Shown one piece after another: positions 46,387 to 64,000 of a DNA stretch of 64,000 nt (position 1 is its first letter; every line of letters begins with the position of its first letter). A program made the position numbers and the translations under genes. The notes under the pieces are model-generated. The model had not been told where the DNA came from and searched no databases. It saw nothing but the letters and a program-made list of their open reading frames with translations. Origin of the DNA: Candidatus Nomurabacteria bacterium (GTDB lineage: Bacteria; Patescibacteriota; Minisyncoccia; Phycocordibacterales; UBA9973). Location: contig CP060230.1 in the NCBI GenBank assembly GCA_023898605.1, positions 3,944 through 67,943 of the forward strand, given 5' to 3'.

Positions 46387-46389
46387 TTT

Positions 46390-48100: not shown

Positions 48101-50782
48101 ATGGCAAAAGAAAAAGACAACAAAAAAGAAGATTGGATAAAGGTTAAGGGTGCAAAAACTCATAATCTTAAAAATATCGATGTAGAAATGCCACGAAACA
48201 AAATGGTGGCTATTACTGGTATGAGCGGCTCGGGCAAGAGTTCGCTTGCTTTCGATACTATATTTGCAGAAGGTCAAAGAAGATATGTAGAGAGTCTTTC
48301 TGCATATGCTAGACAGTTTTTGAACCAGATGCCAAAACCAGACGTCGATGAAATAGTTGGTCTTTCTCCGGCAATATCTATCGATCAGAAGACAAGGTCC
48401 AACAATCCACGTTCTACTGTCGCAACGATAACAGAGATATATGACTATCTTCGTGTGATGTTTGCCAGAGTTGGTAGACCGTACTGTCCGCTTTGTGGAG
48501 AAGAAATAAAAAAACTTTCAAACGAAGAAATCATCTCTTTTGTTTTTTCAAAAGTAGAAGAAGAAATCAAAAAAACCAAAAAAGAAAAAAGAGAAGTAAT
48601 GGGTCTAAGTCAATCAAAAGGATTGACCGACCGAACTTCCCAGAGGGAAGTTTTAGGTATATCTTGGGATGAAAGTCCGGTTACTGTTTTTTCTCCTATA
48701 GTTCGCGGTAGAAAGGGTGAGTACTACCAACTACTTTATGATCTACTAAACAAAGGTTATGCAAAGGTTAGAATAGATGGAGGTATAAAAAATCTTCGTG
48801 ACAGGATAGATCTGTCCAAAACAAAAAAACACGATATCGATATATTTGTCGACGAGCTTTTCTTTCACGAGTTTGTTGGTGAAGAAAAGTCTACAACTAG
48901 AACAAGACTTGCAGAAGCAGTAGAAAGAGCACTTCTGGAGGCTGACGGCCTCGTAACTATAAAAATTGGTGATGAAGAAATGACACTCTCTTCCAAGTTT
49001 GCATGTCCAAACGACGGTTTTTCTTTTCCAGAGATAGAACCTAGACTTTTCTCATTCAACTCTCCATATGGTGCTTGTGAAGTATGTAATGGTATAGGAA
49101 CCAAGTTTTTTGGAGGTGATGAGCCGTGCGAAACGTGTTTGGGTGCGAGACTTAGAAAAGAAGCTCTCAATGTTTTTCTAATCTCTGGAAAGAAGAAAGT
49201 AAATATCCTAGACCTCGTCTCGCTGTCTGTTACTGATGCAGTGGACTTTTTTATAGAACTAAAACTTTCTCAGCAAGAAAAAGAGATCGCTAAAACAGTT
49301 GTTAGAGAAATTGAAACCAGACTTCAGTTTTTGTCAGACGTTGGACTTGGATATCTGTCACTAGATAGAAAGGCGGGAACGCTTTCTGGTGGAGAAAGCC
49401 AGCGTATAAGACTCGCTTCTCAGCTAGGTTCTAGACTTGTTGGTGCGATGTATGTACTTGATGAGCCAACTATAGGACTACACCAAAGGGACAACGACAG
49501 ACTTATAAAAACTCTTCTGAATCTACGAGATCTCGGTAACACTATAATTATTGTAGAACATGATGAAGATACGATATATGCTTCTGACTACATAGTAGAT
49601 ATAGGTCCAAAGGCGGGCGTTCATGGTGGAGAAGTTATTGCTATGGGATTTCTAGATGAATTTCTTTCTGCTGACAAACTACCCAAAGCTGTGAGTGACT
49701 CTAGAACATTGCGATATCTTCGAAACGAAGAATTGATAGAACTCCCAGAAAAGAGAAGAACAAGCGAGAAGGGTAAAATCCAGATTCGTGGAGGAAATGT
49801 TTTCAATATAAAAAATATGGATGTAGATATTCCTCTAGGAAAGATGGTTTGTATAACCGGTGTTTCTGGTTCTGGAAAAAGTTCTTTTATGTACGAGATT
49901 TTGCACAGAAACTTAGAAGCCAAGTTTGAAAAGAGACGAAGAAGTATATCGACTTATAATTGCAAAAGCTTTTCTGGATCAGAGTATCTTTCTAGATCTG
50001 TTCTCATAGATCAGTCTCCGATAGGTAGAACACCTAGGTCAAACATCGCAACTTATACAGGAGCATTTACTCATATAAGAGATATATTTTCTGCGACAGA
50101 AGAAGCAAGGTTCCGTGGCTGGAAACCAAACAGATTCTCTTTCAATGTAAAAGGTGGTAGATGTGAAGCTTGCGAAGGTAATGGTCAGATTGCAGTAGAG
50201 ATGCACTTTCTACCAACGGTTTATGTAACTTGTGATGTTTGTGGTGGAAAGAGGTTCGACAAAGAAACACTCCTAGTAAAGTACAAAGGAAAAAATATCC
50301 ACGATGTACTCCAAATGACAGTAGAAGAAGCTGTAGATTTCTTCGAAGATATTCCTGCTGTGGCCGATCGTTTAAGTACTTTAAACGATGTAGGCCTAGG
50401 TTACATAAAGTTAGGCCAGAGTGCTACGACACTTTCTGGAGGAGAAGCACAAAGAGTCAAAATATCTTCTGAGCTTTATCGAAGACACACAGAGAAAACT
50501 ATATATCTTCTAGATGAACCAACCGTGGGATTGCACTATGATGATGTGGCAAAACTGTTAGAGGTTTTGAAGATGCTGGTAGAAAAAGGGCATACAGTCG
50601 TGCTTATAGAACACCATATGGATATCATAAAATCTTCTGACTATATAATCGACATAGGTCCAGAGGGTGGAGTTGGTGGAGGTAGAATCATTGCAAAAGG
50701 TACGCCAGAAGATGTTGCAGATAATCCAAAAAGTTATACTGGTCAGTATCTCAAAAAAGTTTTGAAAATAAAGAAAAAATAA
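48101..50782 (+). CDS. uvrA: excinuclease ABC subunit A
   Basis: It has two ABC ATPase modules (GMSGSGKSSLAFDTI; GVSGSGKSS; two LSGGE signatures) and Zn-finger cysteines (CPLCGEE, CEVCNG, CEACEGNG, CDVCGG). Confidence 0.95.
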   Translation: MAKEKDNKKEDWIKVKGAKTHNLKNIDVEMPRNKMVAITGMSGSGKSSLAFDTIFAEGQRRYVESLSAYARQFLNQMPKPDVDEIVGLSPAISIDQKTRSNNPRSTVATITEIYDYLRVMFARVGRPYCPLCGEEIKKLSNEEIISFVFSKVEEEIKKTKKEKREVMGLSQSKGLTDRTSQREVLGISWDESPVTVFSPIVRGRKGEYYQLLYDLLNKGYAKVRIDGGIKNLRDRIDLSKTKKHDIDIFVDELFFHEFVGEEKSTTRTRLAEAVERALLEADGLVTIKIGDEEMTLSSKFACPNDGFSFPEIEPRLFSFNSPYGACEVCNGIGTKFFGGDEPCETCLGARLRKEALNVFLISGKKKVNILDLVSLSVTDAVDFFIELKLSQQEKEIAKTVVREIETRLQFLSDVGLGYLSLDRKAGTLSGGESQRIRLASQLGSRLVGAMYVLDEPTIGLHQRDNDRLIKTLLNLRDLGNTIIIVEHDEDTIYASDYIVDIGPKAGVHGGEVIAMGFLDEFLSADKLPKAVSDSRTLRYLRNEELIELPEKRRTSEKGKIQIRGGNVFNIKNMDVDIPLGKMVCITGVSGSGKSSFMYEILHRNLEAKFEKRRRSISTYNCKSFSGSEYLSRSVLIDQSPIGRTPRSNIATYTGAFTHIRDIFSATEEARFRGWKPNRFSFNVKGGRCEACEGNGQIAVEMHFLPTVYVTCDVCGGKRFDKETLLVKYKGKNIHDVLQMTVEEAVDFFEDIPAVADRLSTLNDVGLGYIKLGQSATTLSGGEAQRVKISSELYRRHTEKTIYLLDEPTVGLHYDDVAKLLEVLKMLVEKGHTVVLIEHHMDIIKSSDYIIDIGPEGGVGGGRIIAKGTPEDVADNPKSYTGQYLKKVLKIKKK

Positions 50783-50811
50783 AAAAGCCGGAATGATTTC
50801 CGGCTTTTTTC
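50781..50811. terminator. bidirectional rho-independent terminator between convergent uvrA and the P-type ATPase
   Basis: aaaaaagccggaa-tgat-ttccggctttttt. Confidence 0.65.
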
Positions 50812-53357
50812 TATCTTTTGTTGAAGTAGTATTTCATCGTTTCAAGACCTATTACATTTACGAGTCCTATCATCAACACCCCGACTAGCCATATTGGACT
50901 TAGTGCTACTGTTCCGAGTAAGTTTGATATTGGCGCTACATAAACACTAGATAGTATTGTTACAAGACCTATTATAACTCCAAAGAAAACATATTTGTTT
51001 TCCCAGATTTTGTATTGACCTAGGTTCATATCTAGTCTTTCGATTGAGAAAGAAAGGAAGAGTAAATAGGTTGCAAATGATAGATATGTGAAGGTTCTGG
51101 CGATTTCTATATCTACGTATTTTTGCAAGAAAAAGTAAACCAAGAACAAAAACGTACTAGAAAATATTCCTCTTACAAATGTGTACATCAATATATCTCT
51201 ATCGATAACTTTTTGTTTGAACAAACCTTTTTTCTTTGTAGGTTTGTATTCTCTATATCCAAACGTAAATCCTAGAGCTGGGAATATATCTGAAAAGAAT
51301 TTTACAAATAGTATCTGTATAGCGTTTAGTGGGAGAGCGAGACTCATAGCGATAGATCCTCCGATAAGAAGTAGTTCGTCGAAAGAGTCTGCGAGTAGGT
51401 AGACAATAACAGTTCTCATTTTTTGTTTTATAGATCTACCTTCTTTGATTGCAGAAACTATAGTTGTGTAGTTGTCGTCTAGTAGCACAAGATCGGCCGC
51501 GCCTTTGGCAACATCAGTTCCGCTTCCCATGGCAACTCCTATCGATGCAGTTTTTAGAGCCGGAGCATCATTTACACCGTCTCCTGTTACAGAAACTATT
51601 TCTCCAATCGATTCGTATATTTCGACAAGTCTTTTTTTGTGAGAAGGGGAAACCCTAGCAAATATATCTATGTCTTTGATTCTTGTTTTTAGTATTTCAT
51701 CAGACATGTTTTCTAACTCTTCTCCTGTTATTATTTCTGCATCACCTTCAACTAACCCAGAGTCTTTTGCTATATAAAGAGCGGTTTTTGGGTGGTCACC
51801 CGTTACAAGAACAGTTCTTACGCCTTCTAGTTTTATGTCTTTTATTGCTTCACGCACACCTTCTCTTACCGTGTCACTAAAACGAAGCATGCCTTTCCAA
51901 GAAAATGTTTCTTTTTCTATTATTTCTTCTATTTTTTCTATATTTTTGTTTTCTATTTCTTTTTCTACAACACCGAGTATTCTTTCTCCAACTTCTGCAA
52001 AAGAATCTATTTGTTTATTTATCGCGTCTTTGTTGTGTGACCTTGTTTTGTTTATTAGTATGTCTGGCGCACCAAGTAGTGATAGATAGAGTTTCCCACC
52101 TTTTTCGTACAAAACCCCAGAGAATTTATTGAGAGAAGTAAATGGGATTTTTTCTATTATCGTATGGTTTTTGTACAGAGGGTGTAGTTCTTTTCTGTTT
52201 TGGTATTCTTTTTCTAGAGCAACTTCTAGAGGACGTCCCCCTATAAGATTGCCTTCTTGGTCTAACTCTCCGTGTATGTTGAGCATCGCAGAAAGTAGTA
52301 GTGATTCTTTGTCTTCGGCTTCTTCACCTACGAGAGAAAGTTTGCCTTCTGTTATAGTTCCAGTTTTATCTGTCATTATTATACTTACGTTACCCAGAGT
52401 TTCTGCAGAATTTAGTTTTCTTACAACACCTTTTTTCTTGAGTAAGTGTATAGATCCTATCGATAAAACCAGAGTTAGGGCTATCGGGAGACTTTCTGGT
52501 ATGGCAGAAACTATAATAGCGATAGATAGAACTAGTATCTCTCTAGTATCATAACCACTTTGTACACCAAGAATAAGTATGATTACCCCTAGGGACAAAA
52601 GTCCTATTGTTATTTTTTTGGCCAGAGAAGAAACAGCTTTTTGTATAGGAGATACACCTTTCTTACTTTCTTTTACAAGACCTGCGATCTTTCCAATTTC
52701 TGTATTGCTTCCAGTTGCTGTTATCACTGCTTTACAAAGTCCACCAAAAACCAGTGTTCCCGCGTATAGCATGTTTTTTCTATCACCGAGAACAGTATTT
52801 TTATCCAAAACTTTTTCACTTTTCTTTTCTGGCAGAGATTCTCCTGTGAGTATTGCTTCGTCTACTTCTAGGTCTTTCGAAGATAGTATCCTTGCATCAG
52901 CTGGCACTTTGTCACCAGATCGCAATATTATGATATCTCCCGGAACCAATAGTTTTGAATCGACAAGTAGTCTTTGTCCTCCTCTTATAACAATAGTCTT
53001 GAGAGATATATAACTTTCTAGTTTTTTTATAGAGTTGTCGGCTTTGAGCTCCTGATAAAATCCTAGTCCGATGTTTATAAGAATCGCAACTATTATAAAA
53101 ATAGCTTCATTTGTTTTACCTAAAAATATAGATATGAGAGAAGAAACCGCTAGAAGTATGATAAGCGGATTGTTTACTTGTCTTGCTAGTATATCTAGTT
53201 TTAGAGTTTTTTTGTCTTTGGCCGGGATGTTTTTGCCATATTTTTTTTGTCTAGAAGATACTTCTTCTTCTGAGAGGCCATCTCTTCTGGATTCGAGCAT
53301 CTCTATTGCTATATCTGTTTCTAGTGCGTAATACGGGATGTTTTTTTGTTTTTCCAT
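50811..53357 (-). CDS. P-type cation-transporting ATPase (P2/P3-type, Ca2+/Mg2+-like)
   Basis: The phosphorylation site DKTGTIT, the TGES actuator motif (ILTGESLPE), GDGVNDAPAL, and 8-10 TM helices are present. Confidence 0.9.
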   Translation of the reverse strand: MEKQKNIPYYALETDIAIEMLESRRDGLSEEEVSSRQKKYGKNIPAKDKKTLKLDILARQVNNPLIILLAVSSLISIFLGKTNEAIFIIVAILINIGLGFYQELKADNSIKKLESYISLKTIVIRGGQRLLVDSKLLVPGDIIILRSGDKVPADARILSSKDLEVDEAILTGESLPEKKSEKVLDKNTVLGDRKNMLYAGTLVFGGLCKAVITATGSNTEIGKIAGLVKESKKGVSPIQKAVSSLAKKITIGLLSLGVIILILGVQSGYDTREILVLSIAIIVSAIPESLPIALTLVLSIGSIHLLKKKGVVRKLNSAETLGNVSIIMTDKTGTITEGKLSLVGEEAEDKESLLLSAMLNIHGELDQEGNLIGGRPLEVALEKEYQNRKELHPLYKNHTIIEKIPFTSLNKFSGVLYEKGGKLYLSLLGAPDILINKTRSHNKDAINKQIDSFAEVGERILGVVEKEIENKNIEKIEEIIEKETFSWKGMLRFSDTVREGVREAIKDIKLEGVRTVLVTGDHPKTALYIAKDSGLVEGDAEIITGEELENMSDEILKTRIKDIDIFARVSPSHKKRLVEIYESIGEIVSVTGDGVNDAPALKTASIGVAMGSGTDVAKGAADLVLLDDNYTTIVSAIKEGRSIKQKMRTVIVYLLADSFDELLLIGGSIAMSLALPLNAIQILFVKFFSDIFPALGFTFGYREYKPTKKKGLFKQKVIDRDILMYTFVRGIFSSTFLFLVYFFLQKYVDIEIARTFTYLSFATYLLFLSFSIERLDMNLGQYKIWENKYVFFGVIIGLVTILSSVYVAPISNLLGTVALSPIWLVGVLMIGLVNVIGLETMKYYFNKR

Positions 53358-53423
53358 AGTAAATTATTATATCACGGGGCGATTTCGTTTTTGGTCCGAG
53401 TCGATATATAATCAGATTGTTTT

Positions 53424-54692
53424 ATGCAAAAGAAAGACCTGAAAAAGTTTAATCTTCCAGATTCTCCAGGAGTTTATTTTTTCATCGGAAAAAATAAACC
53501 CTCTAGCAAGAAAGAGGAGATCCTATATATAGGTAAGGCAACTTCTCTCAAAGATAGAGTAACTAGCTACTTTTCTAGCGACCTTATCAATTCTAGAGGC
53601 GCACATATCGTCGATATGGTTTTTCGAGCTAGCAAAATCAAATACGAAAAAACAGATACAGTTCTAGAAGCGATACTACTCGAGGCAAACTTGATAAAAA
53701 AATACAAACCCTACTACAACACCAAAGAAAAAGATGATAAGAGTTGGAACTCGGTAGTAGTAACCAAAGAAGAATTTCCAAGAATCTTGCTTGTTAGAGA
53801 GAAGGACATAGATAGGGTGAACATGACCGTGACTTCTAAAAAGGCAGGACTGTCTAACGCAAAGATTTCAGAGGTCTTTGGTCCTTATCCAAAATCTTCG
53901 CATATAAAAGAAGTTCTGCGAATAATAAGAAAGATTTTTCCTTATGATGACAACTCTTCTAGAAGTAGCTATGGTGCAGAGTTCTACAAACAAATAGGGC
54001 TTTCTCCAGATAAAAAGAGCAAAGAAGCCAAGGCACTGTATAAACACAACATAAAACACATAGAGATGTTTCTAGATGCTAAAAAGAAAAAAATAATTTC
54101 TGAGCTCAAGAAAAAGATGCAAGATTTTTCTAAACAAAAAAAGTTTGAAGAAGCCGCCAAGATCAGAAACAAGATATTTGCAATTGATCACATAAACGAC
54201 ATCGCACTTCTGAAAAACGATATTTATGAAGAAGGAAATAGACCAAAGTTTAGAATAGAATCGTACGACATATCGCACCACGGAGGAAAGAGTATGGTTG
54301 GTGTTATGGTTGTACTGGACAACAAAATCTTGGACAAAAACGAATATAGGAAGTTCAACATCAAATCTCGTGACAAGTCCGACGATACTGGCGCACTAAA
54401 AGAAGTACTTGAAAGGAGGTTTTCTCATACAGAGTGGAGTATGCCAGACCTTATAGTTATAGATGGGGGTAAACCACAATATAACGCTGGAGAAAATTTT
54501 CTCAAAAAACACAAAATCGATATACCTCTTGTAACTGTTGTAAAAGACGAAAAACACAAACCAAAAGGCTTCTTGGGCGATGAAAACATGATCAAACTTC
54601 ACAAAGAAGCGATACTCCTATCGAACTCAGAGGCGCACAGATTTGCTATAACATTCCATAAGAAAAAGAGAAGTAAAGATTTTATAAAGTAA
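53424..54692 (+). CDS. uvrC: excinuclease ABC subunit C, short form lacking the C-terminal (HhH)2
   Basis: The GIY-YIG N-terminal nuclease (GVYFFIGKN..ILYIGKATSLKDRV), a UvrBC-interacting region and the RNase-H-like endonuclease domain (ESYDISHHGGKSMVGVMVV) are present. The protein ends at ~422 aa. Confidence 0.8.
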   Translation: MQKKDLKKFNLPDSPGVYFFIGKNKPSSKKEEILYIGKATSLKDRVTSYFSSDLINSRGAHIVDMVFRASKIKYEKTDTVLEAILLEANLIKKYKPYYNTKEKDDKSWNSVVVTKEEFPRILLVREKDIDRVNMTVTSKKAGLSNAKISEVFGPYPKSSHIKEVLRIIRKIFPYDDNSSRSSYGAEFYKQIGLSPDKKSKEAKALYKHNIKHIEMFLDAKKKKIISELKKKMQDFSKQKKFEEAAKIRNKIFAIDHINDIALLKNDIYEEGNRPKFRIESYDISHHGGKSMVGVMVVLDNKILDKNEYRKFNIKSRDKSDDTGALKEVLERRFSHTEWSMPDLIVIDGGKPQYNAGENFLKKHKIDIPLVTVVKDEKHKPKGFLGDENMIKLHKEAILLSNSEAHRFAITFHKKKRSKDFIK

Positions 54693-54733
54693 TTTCTATT
54701 TACTATCTTCTAAAGTGCTAATATACTAGTTAT

Positions 54734-55711
54734 ATGCTCAAAGTTGCAGTGCTCCGCGGTGGGCCAAACGAAAATTATGATATATCTATAGCTTCAGGCG
54801 AAAGCATAATTTCTGCACTAAAAACTCACAGTGATATAGAGGCCCAAGATCTTTTCTTTACAAAAGACATGAATCTTTTGTGGAAAGGTAGACCGCTTAG
54901 GATAGAAGATCTTCACAAACACTTTGATCTTGTTTGGAACAATCTTCACGGTTTTTATGGAGAAGATGGAAAAATACAAACCTTGTTTGAAAACTTTGGT
55001 GTAAAACACACTGGTCCTGGGGCCTGTGCTTCGGCTTCTGCGTTCCATAAAAGAATCGCCAAAGACGTTGCCAAAAATCACTCTGTCAAAACTCCAGAAT
55101 ATGTTTTGATTGATTTCTCTCCATACTTCATAGATCAAGATGAAGAAGAAATAGTTGCCAAAGAAACAGACAAGGTTTTCAGAAAGATAGCTCCACCTTG
55201 GATTGTGAAGCCTCTTTCAGATAGTTTTTCTCGTGGAGTTGTACTGGCTAGAACGTTGCCAGAGCTTGCTATCTCGATAGCTCGTAGCTATGAATCTGGA
55301 GAAGACATAATGGTAGAAGAGTATATCGAAGGATCAGAGTTTTCTGTCGGAGTTATAGATGGATATAGGGGAGAGAACTACTACATACTTCCTCCAGTCA
55401 AAAGAACTTCTTCTGGGAAGCACTTGTCTCACGAAGACGTGTGTAGTGGAATCAGTTGCCATAGTTTCAAGACTATAGATGAAAATAGTAAGTCAGAACT
55501 TATGAGAGTTGCACGTGTCGTGCATGATGCACTAGGTATGAAAGATTATTCTTCTAGTGATTTTATAGTTCATCCAAAGAAAGGAGTTTATTACCTTGAA
55601 ACAGATGCCTTGCCAGATTTGCGAGAAAGTTCTCCGTTTCGAGTTGGGTTAGATTCGGTGGGTGGAACAATCGAAGACTTCGTAAAACATATAGTTTCTA
55701 GAAAAAGATAA
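54734..55711 (+). CDS. ddl: D-alanine--D-alanine ligase
   Basis: It has the ATP-grasp fold with an N-terminal MLKVAVLRGGPNENYDISIASG and a C-terminal D-Ala-D-Ala ligase domain. Confidence 0.75.
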   Translation: MLKVAVLRGGPNENYDISIASGESIISALKTHSDIEAQDLFFTKDMNLLWKGRPLRIEDLHKHFDLVWNNLHGFYGEDGKIQTLFENFGVKHTGPGACASASAFHKRIAKDVAKNHSVKTPEYVLIDFSPYFIDQDEEEIVAKETDKVFRKIAPPWIVKPLSDSFSRGVVLARTLPELAISIARSYESGEDIMVEEYIEGSEFSVGVIDGYRGENYYILPPVKRTSSGKHLSHEDVCSGISCHSFKTIDENSKSELMRVARVVHDALGMKDYSSSDFIVHPKKGVYYLETDALPDLRESSPFRVGLDSVGGTIEDFVKHIVSRKR

Positions 55712-55737
55712 AAAACCCAGATGATTTCTGGGTTTAT
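55711..55737 (+). terminator. hairpin terminator after ddl
   Basis: An aaaaacccagatgatttctgggttt hairpin has a weak T-tract. Confidence 0.4.
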
Positions 55738-55775
55738 ACAATTATTTAATTTTTTAATAGATGATCTTTTGACGT

Positions 55776-56090
55776 CTATTTTTTGTGAATTTCTTCCGCG
55801 ATTCGATGCGCTTCTTTAATTTTTTCCTCTGTAAAAAATAAGGTTGGTACAGACCTACTATTGCTTACATGAATAGCGTTTGGTTCAAATTTTAATATGT
55901 TTATGCAATTAAAACAAATAATATGATTACATTCCGCACGAGGGTGTGAGCCCTTATCTGAATCATAACCAATGATACAGCAGGTGGCGTAAGGTGGTAT
56001 AGGATCGTTACACCTTGCGCAAGTACCGTTCTCATTTTTCTTCTTTTTTTGAGGAAAGACCGAAAAGAAAGACGATAATATTTTTTTCAT
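55776..56090 (-). CDS. small Cys-rich zinc-ribbon protein (hypothetical)
   Basis: The 104-aa ORF has CARC...CC...ECNHIICFNC, i.e. two CxxC-type pairs (treble-clef/zinc-ribbon-like), and a basic N-terminus. It is co-directional with and downstream of the OLD nuclease gene, across a 470-bp structured spacer. Confidence 0.4.
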   Translation of the reverse strand: MKKILSSFFSVFPQKKKKNENGTCARCNDPIPPYATCCIIGYDSDKGSHPRAECNHIICFNCINILKFEPNAIHVSNSRSVPTLFFTEEKIKEAHRIAEEIHKK

Positions 56091-56214
56091 GATAGATCAT
56101 TTGATTTCTTTCATATTATAAAAGTTCTTATACTTTTGCAACCTAAAAATAAAAATCTTTTTATTGATAAAGGTAACATTATTTGTTGCTCTGAAAATGA
56201 AATAGTACTTTATG

Positions 56215-56334
56215 GGTAATGACGTCGGCAGTAACTATACTGCCCTAACCGGGAGCAATGCTCCACGGCGCACGTATGACCGCATAACTCATAGTACATT
56301 TCACCCCGTCATGAGAAACATGGCGGGTTTTTTA
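56215..56334 (+). ncRNA. candidate small structured RNA (~115 nt) ending at an intrinsic terminator, antisense to the OLD and Zn-ribbon transcription direction
   Basis: Several stable hairpins (ggcagta-acta-tactgcc, ggagc-aat-gctcc) and a terminal ccccgtcatg-agaaa-catggcggg + T6 terminator. There is a possible weak promoter at about 56163-56210. It is non-coding and GC-richer than the flanks. No rfam-like motif was recognised. Confidence 0.3.
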
Positions 56335-56479
56335 TATTTAGGCAGTGTCGAGCACTGCGTAGCTCTTTTTAAAAAAGAGCGAAGCGGTGGACCTCAGTAT
56401 ATTTGATTTTAACCAGATTGTTAAGGAGATTAAGGCTTGGTGGGACCTTAAGGACCTTGTAATAGTAACTTGATATTGC

Positions 56480-56560
56480 TTTAGGGGTATGGGGGTACCC
56501 CCAGAAGTCGACCCCCGAGGGGGTTAGAGATAGCCGTATAGGGGTCGATGGACAAAAACA
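56480..56560. repeat. GC-rich compound palindromic element immediately 3' of the OLD nuclease stop
   Basis: gggggtaccccc, cccccgaggggg and the outer tcgacccc...ggggtcga inverted repeats, in a ~35% GC genome. Confidence 0.5.
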
Positions 56561-56569
56561 AGTGGTTTT

Positions 56570-58219
56570 TTAGTCTGAGAAAATATTTTCAATAATATCT
56601 TTCAGCCTTTGCGGTATAGCGGTTGAATCTAAGTCTTTAAATGTCTTGAAAGCGTTAAAAGGTTTGGTCCCACTTGGGATGGTTATACCTGCGGTGCTAC
56701 ATACTTGTTCAAAATCAGGGTCAAGAATTTCTGTCTTTCCAATATCTCTTGAATCTGTCACTCCTTGTTCAATATTACTATTAGAATCAGTACTACCTGC
56801 ATCTTTGTCGTAAATCACAATGTACGGTATACGGAAAGCATTTAAAACTTTTATGAAAAATGGTATTGCCTCTTTTCCGCCACACTCAACAATGGTAATG
56901 CCATAATCATAAAATAAATACTCTGGATTTATATTCCCAGCAATTACAGGAAGCACGACTTTTTCTGTATCTCCCTCTACTAATACAACTTTGCGTCCAA
57001 AAAACATCTCATTTCTTTCAGGGTCAAATTCAGTGAGAAGTTTAAAATTTTTCTTTTCTTCTGCTTGAGGGAAAATCTCATCAGTATACTGAATAATTTT
57101 GGTACCAGTGGCCATATCTTTTTTAACAGCAATGCCAATAGATTGGTATTCAGTCATATCAATGAAGAAGCTTGAGTGGGTAGTGAAAATAACTTGGTCA
57201 CTTTCTGAAATTTCCTTGAGCAGAGCAAACATTGACCTCTGCATTTGTGGATGAAGATATAGTTCTGGTTCTTCTATTCCGAATATTAAAGCTTTTGCTT
57301 TCTCGCCACGTTCTTTCTTTAGGAGTTCAGCATATGCTCTAAATATCACAAATATAACAGAGCGTTGTAAGCCATGTCCTTTATCTTCTATGGCAGTAAA
57401 CACTCCGTCATTGACCATAATTCGTGTTCCAGACTGGAACACTTCCTTAATACTAGGAGGTGTTACATCAAGCTTTATACTCGTTCCTCTCATGTGTGCA
57501 GATAATTTCTCACTAAGCGTTGTCTCAAAGTCTTTAAGCTGAGTAATTCTTCCGTCCTGCTCTTCATTTTCACCCATGAGCAACTTATTAAATTCTTCAT
57601 TCACTCTCTTAAGTTCATTGTTCTCTAGAACACTACTCAACATCGTGTTGACAATCTGACCGAATCTTGATTTTTCAGTAATCTTTGCTTCCTCTTTGAT
57701 ATCTTTTACAGCTGGCACATACAAGAAATCAGGCAAATACCCGTTTGCGACAGTTGCCCAACCAAAAGGTTTTGGTTTCCAATAGTAGTGTTTCTCTGCT
57801 GATGTGAATGGGTCAATTTCTTCTTTTTCAAGAATTTCAACAGCATCTTTTTTATCTTTATCATTCTCAAACTTATCTCCAAGAATCACTGCTGAAAAAA
57901 GGTGGTTATCATCTCCTTCGAAATAGTATTCTTTTTTCAGAATTACTGTTTGTTCGTCATCTAATAGGTATTTTGAAAATGTTTTCTTTGCATCATCATT
58001 TAAATCATTGAACCAAATCTGTATAACTATAGGTTGTTTAGTGTCGTTGAAATAATCAACTGGTAGTTTTTGTGTACTACTAAAAAATAGGTCTAGAGAT
58101 TTTAATACATTAGATTTACCAGCATTGTTTTCTCCTATAAAAGCCATTAGATTGTCGAAATCTATCCTTTCAGTCTTAAATGATTTGAAATTTTTTATAG
58201 ATACTCTAGTGATTTTCAT
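56570..58219 (-). CDS. OLD-family (overcoming lysogenization defect) ATP-dependent endonuclease with N-terminal ABC-type ATPase and C-terminal Toprim; stand-alone (class 1-like)
   Basis: The Walker A is GENNAGKSN (..FKSF..), the ABC signature-like motif is KGHGLQRSVIF, the Walker B/D-loop is LIFGIEEPELYLHP and the H-loop is TTHS. The Toprim domain has VVLVEGDTEKVVL (catalytic Glu) and IVIYDKDAGS (DxD). The ATG is at 58219; the ORF track used an upstream TTG. Confidence 0.75.
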   Translation of the reverse strand: MKITRVSIKNFKSFKTERIDFDNLMAFIGENNAGKSNVLKSLDLFFSSTQKLPVDYFNDTKQPIVIQIWFNDLNDDAKKTFSKYLLDDEQTVILKKEYYFEGDDNHLFSAVILGDKFENDKDKKDAVEILEKEEIDPFTSAEKHYYWKPKPFGWATVANGYLPDFLYVPAVKDIKEEAKITEKSRFGQIVNTMLSSVLENNELKRVNEEFNKLLMGENEEQDGRITQLKDFETTLSEKLSAHMRGTSIKLDVTPPSIKEVFQSGTRIMVNDGVFTAIEDKGHGLQRSVIFVIFRAYAELLKKERGEKAKALIFGIEEPELYLHPQMQRSMFALLKEISESDQVIFTTHSSFFIDMTEYQSIGIAVKKDMATGTKIIQYTDEIFPQAEEKKNFKLLTEFDPERNEMFFGRKVVLVEGDTEKVVLPVIAGNINPEYLFYDYGITIVECGGKEAIPFFIKVLNAFRIPYIVIYDKDAGSTDSNSNIEQGVTDSRDIGKTEILDPDFEQVCSTAGITIPSGTKPFNAFKTFKDLDSTAIPQRLKDIIENIFSD

Positions 58220-58375
58220 GGTTTTCTTTAGGAATAGGTCTATATACAATATCGACCAGTGTTATCAATTTTGTAGCTTGTTCTAAAGCATCTTGGTCCG
58301 ACAAGTCTGTGCCAATTTCTTTTTTATAAAAGTTAGCATCCTGTCAGGAATACATTGCTTCAAATTCAAATTTTG

Positions 58376-58448
58376 TGGACCTGAGGAGATTTGAACTCCT
58401 GACCTTTCGCTTGCAAAGCGACTGCTCTACCAACTGAGCTACAGGCCC
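58376..58448 (-). tRNA. tRNA-Ala (anticodon UGC), CCA not encoded
   Basis: The minus-strand sequence GGGCCTGTAGCTCAGTTGGTAGAGCAGTCGCTTTGCAAGCGAAAGGTCAGGAGTTCAAATCTCCTCAGGTCCA has a 7-bp acceptor stem, the anticodon loop TTTGCAA, a T-loop with GTTCAAATC, and the G3:U70-compatible GGGCC...GGTCC acceptor typical of tRNA-Ala. Confidence 0.85.
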
Positions 58449-58453
58449 AAAAT

Positions 58454-58553
58454 ATTTTTTAGTTATTAAACTGAGCCCCGACGTTCTACTTTGTAGAAGT
58501 GCGGGGCCCCGTACCTCTCTTGCAAGAGAGCGTCGGGGCTACAGGCCCAAAAT
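58454..58553. repeat. partial tandem duplication of the tRNA-Ala 5' end, split by a 61-bp GC-rich palindromic (four-way-junction-like) insert
   Basis: The 16-bp direct repeat gctacaggcccaaaat occurs at 58438-58453 and 58538-58553. In the second copy the tRNA 5' segment aactgagc|ctacaggccc is split at 58477-58537 by cccgacg...cgtcgggg, which has 8-bp terminal inverted repeats and three internal hairpins. Confidence 0.6.
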
Positions 58554-58766
58554 TAACTAAAAACTTAAAACTCAAAATTCATAACTTTATATCATGTACT
58601 GTTCGGACCCTGTCCGCCTAATTCTGGCGGAAACTGAGCACGGTGAGATACTGCTAATATTTCAAGTTTATACTGATCCTTTCCGGGGTCTAGCCCTCAC
58701 AAAACCAGTACGGAATATATTAGGACAAAATCCAAACAAAAGCAACCCCGATTTTGGTAAAAAAAT

Positions 58767-58794
58767 GGACAAAAGCTGAAAAATATCTATAATG
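58767..58794 (+). promoter_or_regulatory. sigma70-like promoter (TGGACA-16-TATAAT) for the small basic peptide gene
   Basis: tggacaaaagctgaaaaatatctataat lies immediately upstream of the ATG at 58803. Confidence 0.35.
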
Positions 58795-58802
58795 CTATCT
58801 AT

Positions 58803-58883
58803 ATGAATAAAAAGAAAAAAGTGGTTAGAAAGAAGAAAGCCAAGAAAGTAGAAAAGAAACAAGTTACTGCAAGACACAGATAG
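58803..58883 (+). CDS. candidate 26-aa highly basic peptide
   Basis: The ORF encodes MNKKKKVVRKKKAKKVEKKQVTARHR. It has a consensus-like promoter directly upstream and no Shine-Dalgarno sequence, so it may be leaderless. It is below the ORF-track size cutoff. Confidence 0.2.
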   Translation: MNKKKKVVRKKKAKKVEKKQVTARHR

Positions 58884-59046
58884 TCTTGATTTTTGGCAAT
58901 ATTTTGTTAGAATCAGGATTGTAAGTACGAGGCAGTGCGAAGAGCATAGCTTTTTATTTCGCCTTATACTTCGTCTGGTCGAAAAAATCAGTTTTGCCTT
59001 TGTGGCAAAACTGCTCCATTAATAAATGATAATTTGAAATATTATT

Positions 59047-59199
59047 ATGGACGATATGAACAACAATGTTGTAAACACAGCAGCAGAAGGAACAGAGACT
59101 ACAGAAGAAGAACAAATGAACGCTGCTCCTATGATGGATGATGCTACAGACGAAACATCATCTGAAGAAGAAACTACAGAAGAAGGCGAGATGGCCTAA
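59047..59199 (+). CDS. candidate 50-aa highly acidic peptide
   Basis: The ORF encodes MDDMNNNVVNTAAEGTETTEEEQMNAAPMMDDATDETSSEEETTEEGEMA. It is followed 12 nt later by a strong intrinsic terminator, with a promoter-like TTGATT-16-TAGAAT at about 58886-58913. Confidence 0.3.
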   Translation: MDDMNNNVVNTAAEGTETTEEEQMNAAPMMDDATDETSSEEETTEEGEMA

Positions 59200-59211
59200 A
59201 TTCTCAATCAA

Positions 59212-59242
59212 AAAGCCCTAGATTTTCTCTAGGGCTTTTTGA
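59212..59242 (+). terminator. rho-independent terminator
   Basis: An aaaagccctaga-ttttct-ctagggcttttt hairpin is followed by a T-run. Confidence 0.65.
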
Positions 59243-59264
59243 TTTTGTATAGTAAAATCTGTTT

Positions 59265-60014
59265 GTGAATCAAAAAGAAAAAATAATTATATATGGCCGA
59301 AACGCTGTAGAAGAAACCCTAGATATAAAACCAGCATCTATAAGGGAGATTTTTTTGTATGACGGTGCAGAGGAGTCATTCCAGAAAAGGATCAGAGCTA
59401 TAGCCTCGAAACATAGTATCAGGGTTAGTGGTGCGTCAAAAAGCTTCATGACAAAAAAGTTGGGAGATGTTGTACACCAGGGTGTGATGGCGGTTCTAGA
59501 TATGGAAATCGTTAACTTCGGAGATTGGTACGAGAAAGCAAGAGAAAGCGAAAGAAAAGACCCAATAGTTATAATCGACAGCCTAGAAGATGTTGGAAAT
59601 GTCGGAGCGATAGTTAGAAGCGCAGCAGCGTTTGGAATAAAAAATATTTTTCTAGAAAAGAAAAAAGATATTTCAGGATTTATTTCTAGGATTTTCAAAT
59701 CTTCTGCTGGTCAGGTAAATAGACAAAACATAGTTTTCATAGGTAACACTAACGAAACACTTCGCAAACTAAAAGACATAGGATACTGGAGTGTTGCATT
59801 AGATATGGATGGCGAAACAAAACTTTCAGAAATGACTTTTGATATGCCTACTGTTTTTGTTGTTGGGAAAGAAGGTGAAGGAGTCCCTCCGAAAACCATG
59901 GAGATTTGTGACTTTAGAGTAAAGATACCTATGAAAGGTGGCGTAGAGTCACTAAACGCTTCTGTTTCTATTGGAATCGCTTTTTATGAATGGTCACTAG
60001 ATAACTTGAAATAG
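59265..60014 (+). CDS. rlmB: SpoU/TrmH-family 23S rRNA 2'-O-ribose methyltransferase (RlmB-like)
   Basis: An N-terminal substrate-binding domain (IIYGRNAVEE) is followed by the SPOUT catalytic motifs (LEDVGNVGAIVRSAAAFG; VVGKEGEGV; ESLNASVS). Confidence 0.7.
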   Translation: MNQKEKIIIYGRNAVEETLDIKPASIREIFLYDGAEESFQKRIRAIASKHSIRVSGASKSFMTKKLGDVVHQGVMAVLDMEIVNFGDWYEKARESERKDPIVIIDSLEDVGNVGAIVRSAAAFGIKNIFLEKKKDISGFISRIFKSSAGQVNRQNIVFIGNTNETLRKLKDIGYWSVALDMDGETKLSEMTFDMPTVFVVGKEGEGVPPKTMEICDFRVKIPMKGGVESLNASVSIGIAFYEWSLDNLK

Positions 60015-60016
60015 TT

Positions 60017-61303
60017 ATGGATAAACTTATCGATCAAAAAAGCTATCAGAAAAAACTACTACTCAACTTGAAGGTTGGTTCTTTTTTGGCGAGAAGGGAG
60101 GTTAGGAGATCAAATCCATGGACGACTATTTTGATTATATTTGTGATGACACTAACGTTCTTGAACCTAGTTGTTGTTTCTGGAATCTTGGTTGGACTTA
60201 TCGAAGGATCAGAAGAAGCAAACAGAGAAAGATACACTAGTGATGTGATACTTTCTCCTCTTCCAGAAAGAGAATACATACGAGACTCAACTCGTATAGA
60301 AAAGGAAATCAAGAAAGCTCCAGGTTACGCCATGAGTACTTCTAGATATGTTTTGTCAGGAACAGTTGTTTCCAATTACAAAGACACTTTGAGAAAAGAC
60401 GAGAAGAATAACATAAGCGGTGGATCTATAGTCGGTATCAACCCCGAACTCGAAGACCAGATAACACACATATCAGAAACAGTGATAGAGGGGGAATATC
60501 TGACATCTTCTGATTCTGACAAGATCATGATTGGAAAAGATCTTTTGTACCAATACACTCCGATTGATTCCCCAGGATTTTCGGTTTTGAAAGATGTCGG
60601 TGTTGGTTCTAGAGTTTTGGTTAGAGTTGGAGACAGTGAAAGAGAAATGTTCGTCAAAGGTATATTGAAGAGTAAAGCTGGAGAAGTCGACGCTAGGATT
60701 TTCATGACAGCAAGTGAGGCTAGAAAACTCGGAGGACGAAGCGACCTAAACGTAGACGAGATAGCGGTAGAACTCGCACCAGGATATAGCGTAGAGGCGT
60801 TTAGAGATTATCTTTTAGAAAAAGGTTTTGGTGACAATGCTAGGATTCAGACATGGGAAGACGCTCAGCCGAAATTCTTGAAAGATATCAAAACAACATT
60901 TGCTCTTCTCGGTAACATGATTTCTTCTATCGGACTTGTTGTTGCGAGTATCACAATATTTATCGTTATATTCGTAAACGCTATTACTCGTAGAAGATAT
61001 ATAGGTATCTTGAAAGGTGTTGGGGTAACAAAGGGTGCGATAGAGATATCGTATGTTTTACAAGCACTTTTCTACGCTATTTCTGGAGTTCTCATAGGAA
61101 CACTACTTGTATTTTTGGTTTTGAAGCCTGCTATATATGCGAACCCTATAGATTTTCCATTTTCAGACGGTATATTGGTTGCAACTGCACTCGGTACTTT
61201 TTTCCGAGCGGTGATTTTGTTCTTGGCGACACTTGTTGCGGGATACATACCAGCTTATATAGTTATCAAGCAAAACACACTAGACGCGATATTGGGAAGA
61301 TAA
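60017..61303 (+). CDS. ABC transporter permease, FtsX/MacB-like
   Basis: An N-terminal TM, a large periplasmic domain, and a C-terminal FtsX-type 3-TM bundle with the GVTKG..LF motif. Confidence 0.7.
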   Translation: MDKLIDQKSYQKKLLLNLKVGSFLARREVRRSNPWTTILIIFVMTLTFLNLVVVSGILVGLIEGSEEANRERYTSDVILSPLPEREYIRDSTRIEKEIKKAPGYAMSTSRYVLSGTVVSNYKDTLRKDEKNNISGGSIVGINPELEDQITHISETVIEGEYLTSSDSDKIMIGKDLLYQYTPIDSPGFSVLKDVGVGSRVLVRVGDSEREMFVKGILKSKAGEVDARIFMTASEARKLGGRSDLNVDEIAVELAPGYSVEAFRDYLLEKGFGDNARIQTWEDAQPKFLKDIKTTFALLGNMISSIGLVVASITIFIVIFVNAITRRRYIGILKGVGVTKGAIEISYVLQALFYAISGVLIGTLLVFLVLKPAIYANPIDFPFSDGILVATALGTFFRAVILFLATLVAGYIPAYIVIKQNTLDAILGR

Positions 61304-61347
61304 TTTACTAAAATATACTAAAATCTAATTAACTAAATTTATAAAAC

Positions 61348-62022
61348 ATGATCAAAGCAGACAACATAACAAGAGTTTTCAAAAACGGACAAAACGAACT
61401 CTGGGCACTCAAGGGTATATCTTTCGAAGTAAAAGAAGGTGAGTATCTTGTTATAACAGGAAGAAGTGGATCTGGTAAGTCTACACTGCTGTATCAGCTC
61501 GGTCTTTTAGATTATCCGACAGATGGTGATGTGTATATCGCTGGTGTTCCAACTGGAAACCTAGATAGTGAAACCAGAACAAGAGTTAGACTAGAATCGC
61601 TAGGATATGTTTTTCAAGATTATGCGATACTTCCATCTCTTACTGCACTTGAAAACGTGATGGTCCCACTACTCATGCAAGGCAAAAGCGAAGAGTTTGC
61701 AAAACAAAAGGCCGAGATAGCTCTCGGTAAGGTTGGTCTTGGTGACAGGATGGATCACACACCAGCCAAACTTTCTGGAGGACAACAACAAAGAGTCGCT
61801 ATCGCAAGAGCGCTCGCACACGAACCAAAAATCATTTTTGCCGACGAACCAACAGCAAACCTAGACTCAGAAACAGCAGAGTCGGTACTAGATGTTTTTG
61901 GAGATTTGCACAAAAGCGGACAAACTATAATCATGGTTACTCACGAAGAAGAGTATGCAAAAAGAGCTGACAGAGTCATAACTTTGTCAGACGGAGAAAT
62001 CGTTGAAGATAAAAAGGTTTAA
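61348..62022 (+). CDS. ABC transporter ATP-binding protein (MacB/LolD-type)
   Basis: It has the Walker A GRSGSGKST, the Q-loop, the signature LSGGQQQRVAIARAL, the Walker B IIFADEPT and the H-loop. Confidence 0.85.
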   Translation: MIKADNITRVFKNGQNELWALKGISFEVKEGEYLVITGRSGSGKSTLLYQLGLLDYPTDGDVYIAGVPTGNLDSETRTRVRLESLGYVFQDYAILPSLTALENVMVPLLMQGKSEEFAKQKAEIALGKVGLGDRMDHTPAKLSGGQQQRVAIARALAHEPKIIFADEPTANLDSETAESVLDVFGDLHKSGQTIIMVTHEEEYAKRADRVITLSDGEIVEDKKV

Positions 62023-62023
62023 A

Positions 62024-62575
62024 ATGAAAACTTTAATTGTAGATAATCATACGAAAAACATAGATGAATTGAAAAATCTCTTTAAAAATTCTAATGTAAT
62101 AAAAAAAGAGTATTTCAAAAAAGATTTAGATGTCTCTGAGTACGATCTAGTTGTATTTTCTGGGGGTTCAGATGTTCCAACTGTTTTAAGACATAAAGAT
62201 TTTTATAAAGACGAAATAGATTTTGTAAAAGATATAAAAAAACCAGTTTTGGGAATATGTCTTGGTTTTGAAATAATTGCAGCAGCTTTTGGAGGAAGGC
62301 TGTTCGAACTAGACGAGGAGAAAAGAGGGGTTGTAGATATAAAAATAAAAAATGAAGAAATTTTTGAGGGGAAAGAATTAAATATAAAGGTCTACGAAGC
62401 ACACACTATCGGTATTAAAAAAGCACCAGACTATTTTGTAGAGCTTGCTAGATCAGAGCATGGTATTGAAATTATGCTTAATAAGAAAAATAAAATATTG
62501 GCAATTCAATTTCATCCAGAAATCAAAAATAACTCAGAATTGCTGGGACTACTTTTGGAAAAAATATTAAGTTAG
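62024..62575 (+). CDS. class I glutamine amidotransferase-like protein
   Basis: The GATase1 nucleophile elbow is GICLGFE, and the catalytic His is in FHPE. Confidence 0.55.
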   Translation: MKTLIVDNHTKNIDELKNLFKNSNVIKKEYFKKDLDVSEYDLVVFSGGSDVPTVLRHKDFYKDEIDFVKDIKKPVLGICLGFEIIAAAFGGRLFELDEEKRGVVDIKIKNEEIFEGKELNIKVYEAHTIGIKKAPDYFVELARSEHGIEIMLNKKNKILAIQFHPEIKNNSELLGLLLEKILS

Positions 62576-62618
62576 ATTTTACTTTATCTTATAATCCTTT
62601 TAAACTATAATATAAACT

Positions 62619-64000
62619 ATGTACGACCCAGAAAGAGTAACATACTTTGCTGAGACTGATTATCGTAATCAGAGAACCAAGTTTGGAATCAAGGCAATAG
62701 ACAGAACCAAGCACATATATGTGATCGGTAAAACCGGTATGGGTAAGTCTACCTTGCTCGAAAACATGGCTATACAAGACATCCAAAACGGTGAGGGTTT
62801 TGCATATATCGATCCACACGGAGCTACAGCGGAAAAACTACTTTCGTTTATACCAGAACACAGAATAAAAGATGTTATATACTTCGCACCTTTCGATACA
62901 GAGTTTCCGATATCGTTCAATATCATGGAAGACGTTGGTCCGGACAAGAGACACCTAGTTGCTTCTGGGCTTATGAGTGCATTCAAGAAAATCTGGGCAG
63001 ATGCTTGGAGCGCTAGAATGGAGCACATCTTGAACAATACTATTCTTGCTCTACTAGAATATCCTGACGCAACTCTATTGTCTGTAAACAAAATGCTAAC
63101 AGACAAAGAATACAGGAAAAAAGTTGTAGACAATGTGCAAGATTTTTCTGTAAAAAGTTTCTGGGTTGATGAGTTTGCAAAATATACTGACAGATTTGCA
63201 GCAGAGGCAACACCTGCTATACAAAACAAAGTTGGACAGTTTACATCGAATCCACTTATAAGAAACATAATCGGTCAGCCCAAGTCTAGTTTCGACATAA
63301 GAGATATCATGGACAACAAAAAGATTCTGATCATGAACCTTTCCAAGGGTCTTGTTGGTGAACAGAATGCAAAGCTTCTAGGAAGTATGCTTGTTACCAA
63401 GATCTATCTTGGCGCTATGTCTAGAGCCGATCTTTCTGAGCAAGATATCAAAACAAAACCAAACTTTTATTTTTATGTGGACGAGTTCCAGACATTCGTC
63501 AACGAAACATTTGCCGAGATTCTTTCTGAGGCGAGAAAATACAAACTCAACCTTACTATCGCTCACCAGTACATAGAGCAGATGATTGACCAAGTTAGGT
63601 CCGCTGTTTTTGGAAACGTTGGTACAACTATCGCTTTTCGTGTAGGACCATTTGATGCAGAAGTTCTAGAAAATATATTTATGCCTCGATTTACCAAGAC
63701 CGATCTTGTGAATCTAGGTTTTGCTCAAATATATCTGACTATGTCTATCGACGGAGTAGGTTGTCCGCCGTTTTCTGCAAAGACCTTGCCACCTATATCT
63801 ACCGAACACGAATCGTTTAGATCCCAGATACTAGAAAGCTCTAGAACTCAGTTTGCAAAACCTCGAAAAGAAGTAGAAGAAAATATAATAAAAACTTTGG
63901 GGGAAAACGAAAAGAAAGAAATGCCGTCTGGTGGTGGAGAAAGAGATTTCAATAAAAAAGATTTTTCTCGAGATAGAAAACCTATAAAGAAAATCTCTGG
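62619..64000 (+). CDS. HerA/FtsK/TraD-like P-loop ATPase (DUF87/AAA_10-type; possible type IV secretion/DNA-translocation coupling protein); 3' end outside the window
   Basis: The Walker A is IGKTGMGKST near the N-terminus and the Walker B is FYFYVDEFQTF. The ORF is open to the window end. It is missing from the ORF track because no stop lies inside the window. Confidence 0.45.
   Translation, partial: MYDPERVTYFAETDYRNQRTKFGIKAIDRTKHIYVIGKTGMGKSTLLENMAIQDIQNGEGFAYIDPHGATAEKLLSFIPEHRIKDVIYFAPFDTEFPISFNIMEDVGPDKRHLVASGLMSAFKKIWADAWSARMEHILNNTILALLEYPDATLLSVNKMLTDKEYRKKVVDNVQDFSVKSFWVDEFAKYTDRFAAEATPAIQNKVGQFTSNPLIRNIIGQPKSSFDIRDIMDNKKILIMNLSKGLVGEQNAKLLGSMLVTKIYLGAMSRADLSEQDIKTKPNFYFYVDEFQTFVNETFAEILSEARKYKLNLTIAHQYIEQMIDQVRSAVFGNVGTTIAFRVGPFDAEVLENIFMPRFTKTDLVNLGFAQIYLTMSIDGVGCPPFSAKTLPPISTEHESFRSQILESSRTQFAKPRKEVEENIIKTLGENEKKEMPSGGGERDFNKKDFSRDRKPIKKIS

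Follow-up and report, generated by a model that had tools for sequence, protein, structure and literature searches.

Is a nuclease gene that lies next to a tRNA gene part of a new defence module together with its neighbours, or have the neighbours simply been brought side by side? The question is raised by a locus in a 64-kb stretch of a Candidatus Nomurabacteria genome (the window; all coordinates given here are window positions), in which a gene for an OLD-family protein is found at the 3' end of tRNA-Ala and is followed, across a structured non-coding spacer, by a small cysteine-rich open reading frame (ORF) of the CxxC...CxxC type, here called the zinc-ribbon gene. In the original prediction the nuclease, the zinc-ribbon protein and a small RNA from the spacer were taken together as a possible new two-gene (+RNA) module for phage defence or exclusion of mobile elements. 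The analysis described here points to another answer. We consider it likely that the locus is a degenerate islet of ~2 kb at the 3' end of tRNA-Ala, the sole intact cargo of which is a Class 1 OLD gene that acts like the Class 1 OLDs already known. The features on which this reading is built are the following, in the order in which they occur in the islet.

58375-58448, minus strand: tRNA-Ala (anticodon TGC), identified by ARAGORN and by the Rfam tRNA model (71 bits); its 3' end is the proximal islet boundary.
58209-58343, minus strand: small-ORF remnant of ~50 amino acids (aa) inside the islet, ending ...FYKKEIGTDLSDQDALEQATKLITLVDIVYRPIPKENHENH at its stop codon.
56570-58249, minus strand: OLD ORF; the true start is likely the ATG at 58219, which gives a gene at 56570-58219 and a product of 549 aa.
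56478-56545: GC-rich palindromic end of the OLD cassette, TCGACCCC...GGGGTCGA and GGGGGTACCCCC, with a local GC content of at least 65% and predicted hairpins.
56387-56406, minus strand: degenerate direct repeat of the tRNA-Ala 3' end (TCAAATATACTGAGGTCCAC), an att-like scar that forms the distal islet boundary.

The OLD gene is complete, as had been claimed for it. Its product, which is 100% identical to a database protein (P0001, Candidatus Nomurabacteria), matches the Pfam families AAA_15 (162 bits) and OLD-like_TOPRIM (71 bits). The ATPase part carries a Walker A motif (GENNAGKS, aa 29-36, encoded at 58112-58135), a signature motif (GHGLQR, 281-286), a Walker B motif (LIFGIEEPE, 311-319) and an H-loop (THSS, 347-350), and the Toprim part carries the glutamate motif LVEGDTEK (413-420, encoded at 56960-56983) and the DxD motif as DKD (471-473, encoded at 56801-56815). 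In an alignment of 20 homologues these motifs are invariant or nearly so, with E415, D471 and D473 invariant. Since the ORF is intact and retains all of its motifs, the gene is not decaying.

The two parts are fused in a single polypeptide, and the Toprim glutamate and DxD residues align to those of the Thermus scotoductus OLD (Ts OLD). This protein is also the closest structure in the PDB (6P74, E 8e-33, 117 bits), with GajA at 48 bits (E about 5e-12). Amongst the PADLOC profiles, 'Old' matches over the full length at 294 bits, compared to 175 bits for AriA, which covers the ATPase half only, and at most 158 bits for GajA; the NCBIfam model retron_eff_Eco8 reaches 59 bits, where the cut-off is 250. 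The top phage match is the Old protein of P2, with 26% identity across 97% of the query. In the published scheme stand-alone OLD genes make up Class 1 (PMC10568477), and they are described as not being proximal to other defence genes (PMC10568477). P2 Old, Ts OLD, Vc OLD and YbjD are the stand-alone Class 1 proteins that have been described (PMC10568477, PMC12392090, PMC13261556), and defence has been demonstrated for P2 Old, for Vc OLD (PMC12392090) and for YbjD (PMC13261556). The protein encoded in the window is thus a Class 1 (stand-alone) OLD-family nuclease, its activity being predicted. The statement that the arrangement is not one of the described OLD architectures was wrong, because a stand-alone OLD gene is precisely what the published Class 1 comprises.

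The lack of the usual partners, by contrast, had been read correctly. No helicase, reverse transcriptase (RT), HNH or separate Toprim partner is encoded within ~12 kb upstream or 5 kb downstream (to the window end), and no RT domain is present among the annotated ORFs around it. According to domain annotation of the ORFs, OLD is flanked to one side by rlmB and a MacB-type ABC transporter; to the other lie ddl, uvrC, a P-type ATPase, uvrA and uvrB. UvrB, encoded about 10 kb from OLD, and UvrA are the only proteins here that resemble helicases, and no gene resembling GajB or UvrD adjoins OLD. The small ORFs that neighbour OLD gave no PADLOC matches.

The proximal boundary of the islet is set by the tRNA gene, the 3' end of which lies 155 nt from the OLD start; the placement of OLD directly 3' of tRNA-Ala therefore stands. 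The last 20 nt of the tRNA recur in the same orientation 1988 bp downstream with 17 of 20 positions identical. This is the sole other match in the 64 kb at three or fewer mismatches, where 0.00 would be expected by chance, and the similarity stops at about 20 nt. The distal end also resembles that of the closest OLD locus (L014, OLD 82% identical). The region from the OLD stop codon to the att-like repeat is collinear with the region after the OLD cassette of that locus, with a global score of 21.5 compared to 6.2 +/- 2.5 for shuffled sequences, none of 300 of which reach it. The blocks common to the two distal ends are TTTGTTTT, ACCCCCNCGGGGG, GGGGTACCCC and TCAAATN8GTCCAC, the last of which comes after the GC-rich element in L014 just as it does in the window. 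Among 100 loci the motif CCCCCNCGGGGG of the GC-rich end occurs only in contigs of the same species and in L014, and TCAAATN8GTCCAC, a second diagnostic motif, is likewise restricted to these.

On the basis of the tRNA 3' repeat and the similarity of the distal end to L014, the islet is placed at ~56387-58374. OLD is its only intact cargo; it contains no other ORF of note, and neither an integrase nor an excisionase. Exact-pattern scans of JGI metagenomes gave 0 matches to the GC-rich element, and a scan of viral contigs returned nothing for either the GC-rich motif or the OLD clade.

Contigs from other samples allow the locus to be compared within the species. Over ddl, the zinc-ribbon gene and the spacer, four of them agree with the window at 98.6-99.8% identity, and three of the four end inside the spacer. 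The remaining one (L013, 98.6% identical) is the same as the window through the GC-rich element, shows four mismatches at 56551-56564 and becomes unalignable from the OLD stop codon onwards, which places the break at 56551-56571. Its final 129 nt (L013 1-129) hold instead the start of an ORF on the opposite strand, MDKDLVIGKGNLAGKGVFANRNFKKGEIVISY..., the N-terminus of which matches the start of a SET domain at E 0.003. The 64-kb window has no copy of this SET-like gene, the 38-aa fragment gave no word matches in a protein look-up, and no exact products were returned when RlmB, the ABC ATPase and the spacer ORF of 64 aa were looked up in order to extend the alternative allele. As the spacer is kept in L013 beside a gene other than OLD, the OLD segment is strain-variable and the spacer is not tied to OLD.

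Homologues of the OLD protein at 58-82% identity are found in Adlerbacteria, Kaiserbacteria, Levybacteria and Patescibacteria and on a contig labelled Woesearchaeota; the nearest of them (69-82%) are spread over Adlerbacteria, Kaiserbacteria, Levybacteria and the Woesearchaeota-labelled contig. By comparison, Ddl is only 28% and UvrC 47% identical to the window proteins in the nearest lineage with the same backbone synteny, and OLD is not present in a related genome that shares this synteny. OLD is thus far more conserved across lineages than the vertically inherited genes, which argues for horizontal spread. A scan of GTDB representative genomes with Ddl found no close relative. Six independent loci with OLD genes 69-82% identical were inspected, and their gene orders (R-M, restriction-modification; HTH, helix-turn-helix) are as follows.

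L003/L021, Adlerbacteria: Mod, Res, DUF5655/NucS-like, OLD.
L007/L022, Kaiserbacteria: HTH_17 ... Mod, Res, 149-aa ORF, OLD, small ORFs, tRNAs, integrase, DUF488.
L015: HTH_17, Mod, Res, OLD, ..., integrase, DUF488.
L014: Mod, Res, OLD, 50-aa ORF.
L023, Woesearchaeota-labelled: two N6_N4 methylase genes, OLD.
L001: Type IIG R-M and HTH genes (opposite strand), OLD, integrase, DUF488.

The window OLD has no other defence genes close by, and yet R-M genes, mostly Type III Mod-Res, adjoin OLD at all six of these loci. They are directly upstream and co-directional in five (four Mod-Res pairs and one methylase pair), and at four loci a co-directional Mod-Res(-X)-OLD string ends with OLD. A tyrosine integrase and a DUF488 gene lie just beyond OLD at three of the six loci (L001, L007 and L015), the integrases being 51-67% identical to each other. 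With queries taken from these loci, no homologue of Mod, Res, integrase or DUF488 was found anywhere in the 64-kb window. The Woesearchaeota-labelled locus, with an OLD 69% identical to that of the window, is on contig CAYHUT010000053.1, which was binned as a DPANN archaeon; it represents either a cross-domain transfer between episymbionts or a mis-binned contig of the Candidate Phyla Radiation (CPR).

The small-ORF remnant between the tRNA and OLD also has relatives at such loci. It is interrupted by an in-frame TGA after 'MYS', overlaps the OLD ATG by 14 nt and is probably a pseudogene; in L014 an intact ORF of 50 aa, to which it is 78% identical over 36 aa, directly follows OLD. With a profile built from four members, the remnant included, further matches are found in L058, L040 and L022, and the copy in the window is returned at E 5e-27; the family corresponds to none in Pfam or PHROG. 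Its members are ~50-65-aa proteins with the recurrent motif '...EF+.IYK..G.DLSD.EALE.ATKLI.L...VY', encoded at L014 5764-5916, L058 2713-2910, L040 6207-6575 (minus strand) and L022 1987-2160 (minus strand). The gene is beside OLD in three cases, as the upstream remnant in the window and intact downstream of OLD in L014 and L058; elsewhere, in L040, its neighbour is a large serine recombinase, and in L022 it is found where the Kaiserbacteria island ends on the far side. From this distribution it looks like a protein associated with mobile elements and not a fixed partner of OLD.

At the level of sequence, then, the locus is a tRNA-linked and strain-variable islet with an intact stand-alone OLD gene, relatives of which are found in islands that carry integrase and R-M genes. 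This much of the original prediction, that OLD occupies a variable site linked to a tRNA, has held. The gene probably arrived by integrase-mediated insertion at tRNA-Ala, within a larger R-M/OLD island or else as a mini-element mobilised in trans. The integrase and any R-M partner would then have been lost later. By analogy with the biology of Class 1 proteins (PMC10568477, PMC12392090), the OLD protein would form a dimer in which the ATPase gates a two-metal Toprim site, and it would nick or degrade invading phage or plasmid DNA, with the result that replication is blocked.

Several observations weigh against this reading. No integrase was found in the window when homologues of those of L001, L007 and L015 were sought, and only 17 of the 20 positions agree in the att-like repeat, which is short; integration can thus only be proposed. 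The alternative allele in L013 extends for only 129 nt, which is short of the point where the backbone would be rejoined and of the tRNA-Ala side. In addition, L013 keeps the GC-rich end and the att-like repeat, so that this part of the islet does not vary within the species, and replacement of cargo inside a fixed hotspot is an alternative to insertion. The defence role of this OLD clade is extrapolated from other Class 1 OLDs, and an OLD class with a non-defence role exists, namely archaeal Cran1 (PMC12796447). Finally, because all six close relatives stand beside R-M genes, the lone copy may be inactive, or may depend on R-M genes elsewhere in the 619-kb genome.

Two further explanations also turn on R-M genes. 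The broader of them joins several of the observations: the OLD clade of CPR and DPANN organisms would be a functional extension of R-M, encoded in Mod-Res-OLD operons in which the preceding gene closely adjoins the OLD start or overlaps it. OLD may in this case finish off restricted DNA in hosts with minimal recombination and repair, and the genes would be carried on a family of elements that target tRNA genes, share a conserved GC-rich palindromic end and encode a recurrent ~50-aa 'DLSDxEA' protein. The window copy would be a stripped-down orphan, and the 138-nt terminated RNA in the spacer (described below) a separate, new and lineage-specific small RNA. We offer this combination tentatively; it is possible, though we would doubt it in its entirety.

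The narrower explanation appears unlikely. It takes OLD to be the third component of an R-M-coupled system, acting downstream of Type III Mod-Res, where it might degrade restricted DNA; having lost its partners, the window copy would be non-functional alone or would rely on R-M genes elsewhere. The position of OLD directly after co-directional R-M genes in five of the six contexts would be expected from such coupling, and the spacing is indeed tight: the small gene that precedes OLD overlaps its start by 4 nt in L003 and L007, and Res ends 4-23 nt before OLD in L014 and L015. The sixth context has Type IIG R-M genes next door, and none of those genes is present in the window. However, the ORF in the window is intact with all its motifs, and Class 1 OLDs act alone where this has been tested (PMC12392090, PMC13261556). 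Furthermore, defence genes cluster in islands without functional coupling, and the types of R-M and the small intervening genes vary between the loci. Of the two ways in which the original prediction might have failed, one is seen here in substance, in that the partners that accompany OLD in its relatives (R-M genes, mostly Type III) are missing from the window. The other is seen as well: the zinc-ribbon gene and the spacer, the features of which are listed here, do not accompany OLD in its relatives.

56091-56569: non-coding spacer of 479 bp between OLD and the cysteine-rich ORF.
56341-56381: a pair of short hairpins, GCAGTG..CACTGC and GCTCTTTTT.AAAAAGAGC, in the stretch that separates the att-like repeat from the RNA candidate.
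56198-56335, plus strand: structured small-RNA candidate in backbone DNA, a 106-nt multibranch stem followed by a terminator (56305-56327) and a T-run.
55776-56090, minus strand: cysteine-rich CxxC...CxxC ORF (zinc-ribbon gene), 104 aa.

The spacer, put at 470 bp in the original prediction, is slightly longer than that; its description as GC-rich and structured is borne out. It has a GC content of 40% overall and 46% over 56198-56569, compared to 36.7% for the window, and it folds much more stably than shuffled sequences (z -5.3 on the minus strand). The segment 56195-56340 reaches z -6.9 on the plus strand, where the candidate has a minimum free energy of -55.9 kcal/mol; the z-scores for the minus strand are -4.4/-4.5. 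As had been noted, this strand, antisense to OLD, ends the candidate at an intrinsic terminator, and it is favoured because of the terminator and the better z-score. L013 differs from the window in the candidate by two substitutions only, 56217 U>C and 56286 A>G, which lie opposite each other in one helix and replace a U-A pair by a possible C-G pair; this gives a slight hint of selection on the structure. A search of Rfam with E-values up to 1 over 50000-64000 and a search of the whole window at gathering thresholds returned only the two tRNAs, and no known family for the spacer RNA or for the GC-rich hairpins. An exact-pattern scan of JGI metagenomes gave 0 matches to the RNA core, with no copy detected outside the species. 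Alternatively, the candidate could be a structured 5' untranslated region of the zinc-ribbon gene, since a promoter-like site on the minus strand at 56424-56396 would yield such a transcript.

Two other interpretations of the spacer were considered and set aside. A 64-aa ORF on the plus strand (56212-56406) has no family match and spans both the terminator and the att-like repeat. A retron non-coding RNA would need an RT, which is lacking, and the candidate is on the wrong strand and outside the islet.

The zinc-ribbon gene is rare. A word-indexed search of 5.8e9 proteins matched it only to itself, and an exhaustive HMMER search of 1.84e9 representatives found only four distant homologues (53, 39, 32 and 39% identity), in all of which the four cysteines are invariant. 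No Pfam, PADLOC, NCBIfam or PHROG family matches it above threshold, and an AlphaFold model from a 6-sequence alignment has a pLDDT of 56.8, too low for a fold search. The genomic context could be retrieved for three of the four homologues, and OLD is in none of them. The 53% and 32% homologues are convergent with ddl-uvrC, as in the window, and one of the 39% homologues (P0123, on L017) has a different neighbourhood. In L016 the upstream neighbour of the zinc-ribbon gene is a GTPase gene, and the spacer there is AT-rich and by eye unstructured. Contigs L001-L009, in which three of the six close OLD contexts are represented, gave no zinc-ribbon homologue by tblastn. From these comparisons the zinc-ribbon gene is classed as a lineage-specific backbone gene, syntenic with ddl-uvrC and unrelated to the OLD islet.

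The gene is followed by a terminator at 55713-55735. All four same-species contigs have two extra A residues at the A-run at 55785, close to the 3' end of the ORF, and so encode a 112-aa protein with a longer C-terminal extension than the 104-aa product of the window; the more distant homologues end in basic tails. The window copy reflects either a 2-nt deletion or a homopolymer sequencing error.

Against this background it is very improbable that OLD, the 104-aa zinc-ribbon protein and the spacer RNA form one new defence or exclusion module at tRNA-Ala. It is true that the three features adjoin one another, that OLD and the zinc-ribbon gene run in the same direction, that the spacer is strongly structured, and that no known OLD partner is present. 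However, two of the four zinc-ribbon homologues keep the zinc-ribbon-ddl-uvrC synteny and none of the retrieved contexts has OLD. The spacer DNA was not matched by BLASTN in L001-L009 or in any of the six close OLD contexts; L014 alone shows a weak collinear similarity, and this is to the GC-rich distal end. The whole spacer, moreover, persists in a strain where its neighbour is not OLD. The position of the att-like repeat puts the zinc-ribbon gene and the RNA candidate, together with the two small hairpins, outside the repeat-bounded islet as it is defined here, and on account of this placement the candidate is not part of the OLD unit. Neither the zinc-ribbon gene as a partner nor the RNA as a component, and hence the module itself, survives the comparison with relatives.

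The least credible of the explanations is that OLD is a housekeeping or cell-cycle ATPase like archaeal Cran1 and sits at tRNA-Ala by accident: the surrounding genes are housekeeping genes and a non-defence OLD class is on record (PMC12796447), but the gene is strain-variable, shows much higher similarity between distant CPR lineages than the backbone genes do, lies in integrase/R-M islands in its relatives and is not in the related genome that shares the backbone synteny.

The other side of tRNA-Ala bears traces of its own, the first line below giving the feature concerned.

58474-58553, minus strand: pseudo-copy of the tRNA 5' end, split by a GC-rich hairpin of ~60 nt.

The exact 16-mer ATTTTGGGCCTGTAGC, the first 16 nt of the tRNA-Ala region, is duplicated 100 nt upstream (58438-58553, minus strand), and the upstream copy is followed by the hairpin, with z -6 to -7 on either strand, and then by GCTCAGTT. 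This pseudo-copy with its palindromic insert is possibly the scar of a second insertion event, on the 5' side. GC-rich palindromes do, as reported, flank the tRNA-OLD unit on both sides, at 56478-56537 and 58496-58548. Whether such elements form a dispersed repeat family was also considered; BLAST found no further copies in the 64-kb window.

Further observations concern the flanking DNA. Nucleotide-excision-repair genes are clustered at 43723-55711 (uvrB, uvrA, the P-type ATPase between them and uvrC, then ddl), and a distantly related CPR contig (L016, 6377-12363) keeps the order uvrA ... uvrC-ddl-zinc-ribbon. The UvrC of the window is short (422 aa) and scores slightly under the TIGR00194 cut-off. 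On the rlmB side, a 50-aa, extremely acidic ORF rich in D, E and T (59047-59244, plus strand) has no family match; a strong promoter-like site with 11 of 12 matches is found in its region at 58766-58793, and a perfect 17-nt inverted repeat (59206-59244) follows it just upstream of rlmB.

A clear Class 1 OLD is thereby added to the short list of defence genes in ultra-small CPR genomes, and small tRNA-linked elements carry the gene between CPR lineages and, apparently, a DPANN archaeon. In practical terms the outcome of the analysis is mostly negative: what appeared to be a unit of nuclease, zinc-ribbon and RNA is an inserted gene juxtaposed with backbone DNA. It leaves two leads, namely the OLD clade that in its relatives consistently stands behind R-M genes, mostly Type III Mod-Res, and the structured RNA candidate.

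The place of the window OLD among known systems can be judged class by class. The Class 1 OLDs (P2 Old, 6P74, Vc OLD and YbjD) are, like it, single polypeptides with an ATPase and the Toprim Glu/DxD residues and without a dedicated partner, and P2 old also occupies a mobile, variable locus. It differs from them in being only ~26% identical to P2 Old and in belonging to a clade restricted to CPR and DPANN whose other members adjoin R-M genes. Gabija GajA (Class 2) is of the same ATPase-Toprim fold family, and GajA profiles match the window OLD at E 1e-47 or weaker; these scores are much below those for Class 1, no GajB- or UvrD-like helicase gene is near, and the Toprim has no extra insert when the protein is aligned with Ts OLD. 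The combination of an OLD-type effector with a nearby structured RNA candidate recalls retron Eco8 (Class 3). Unlike the retron, however, the window has no RT near OLD, and the RNA candidate, which lies outside the islet and on the strand opposite to OLD, matches no retron family in Rfam. With PARIS AriA/AriB (Class 4) the resemblance is confined to the ATPase half, which matches the AriA profile at 175 bits, whereas ATPase and Toprim are fused in the window protein, no separate AriB gene is present and the 'Old' profile scores far higher. As to its setting, the islet shares with other tRNA-linked islets the abutment on a tRNA 3' end, a distal direct repeat, variation between strains and a defence gene as cargo; it is set apart from them by its size of ~2 kb, its lack of an integrase or excisionase and its degenerate repeat. 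In these respects it has the look of a remnant, decayed or minimal, of the larger integrase-bearing R-M/OLD islands of its relatives.

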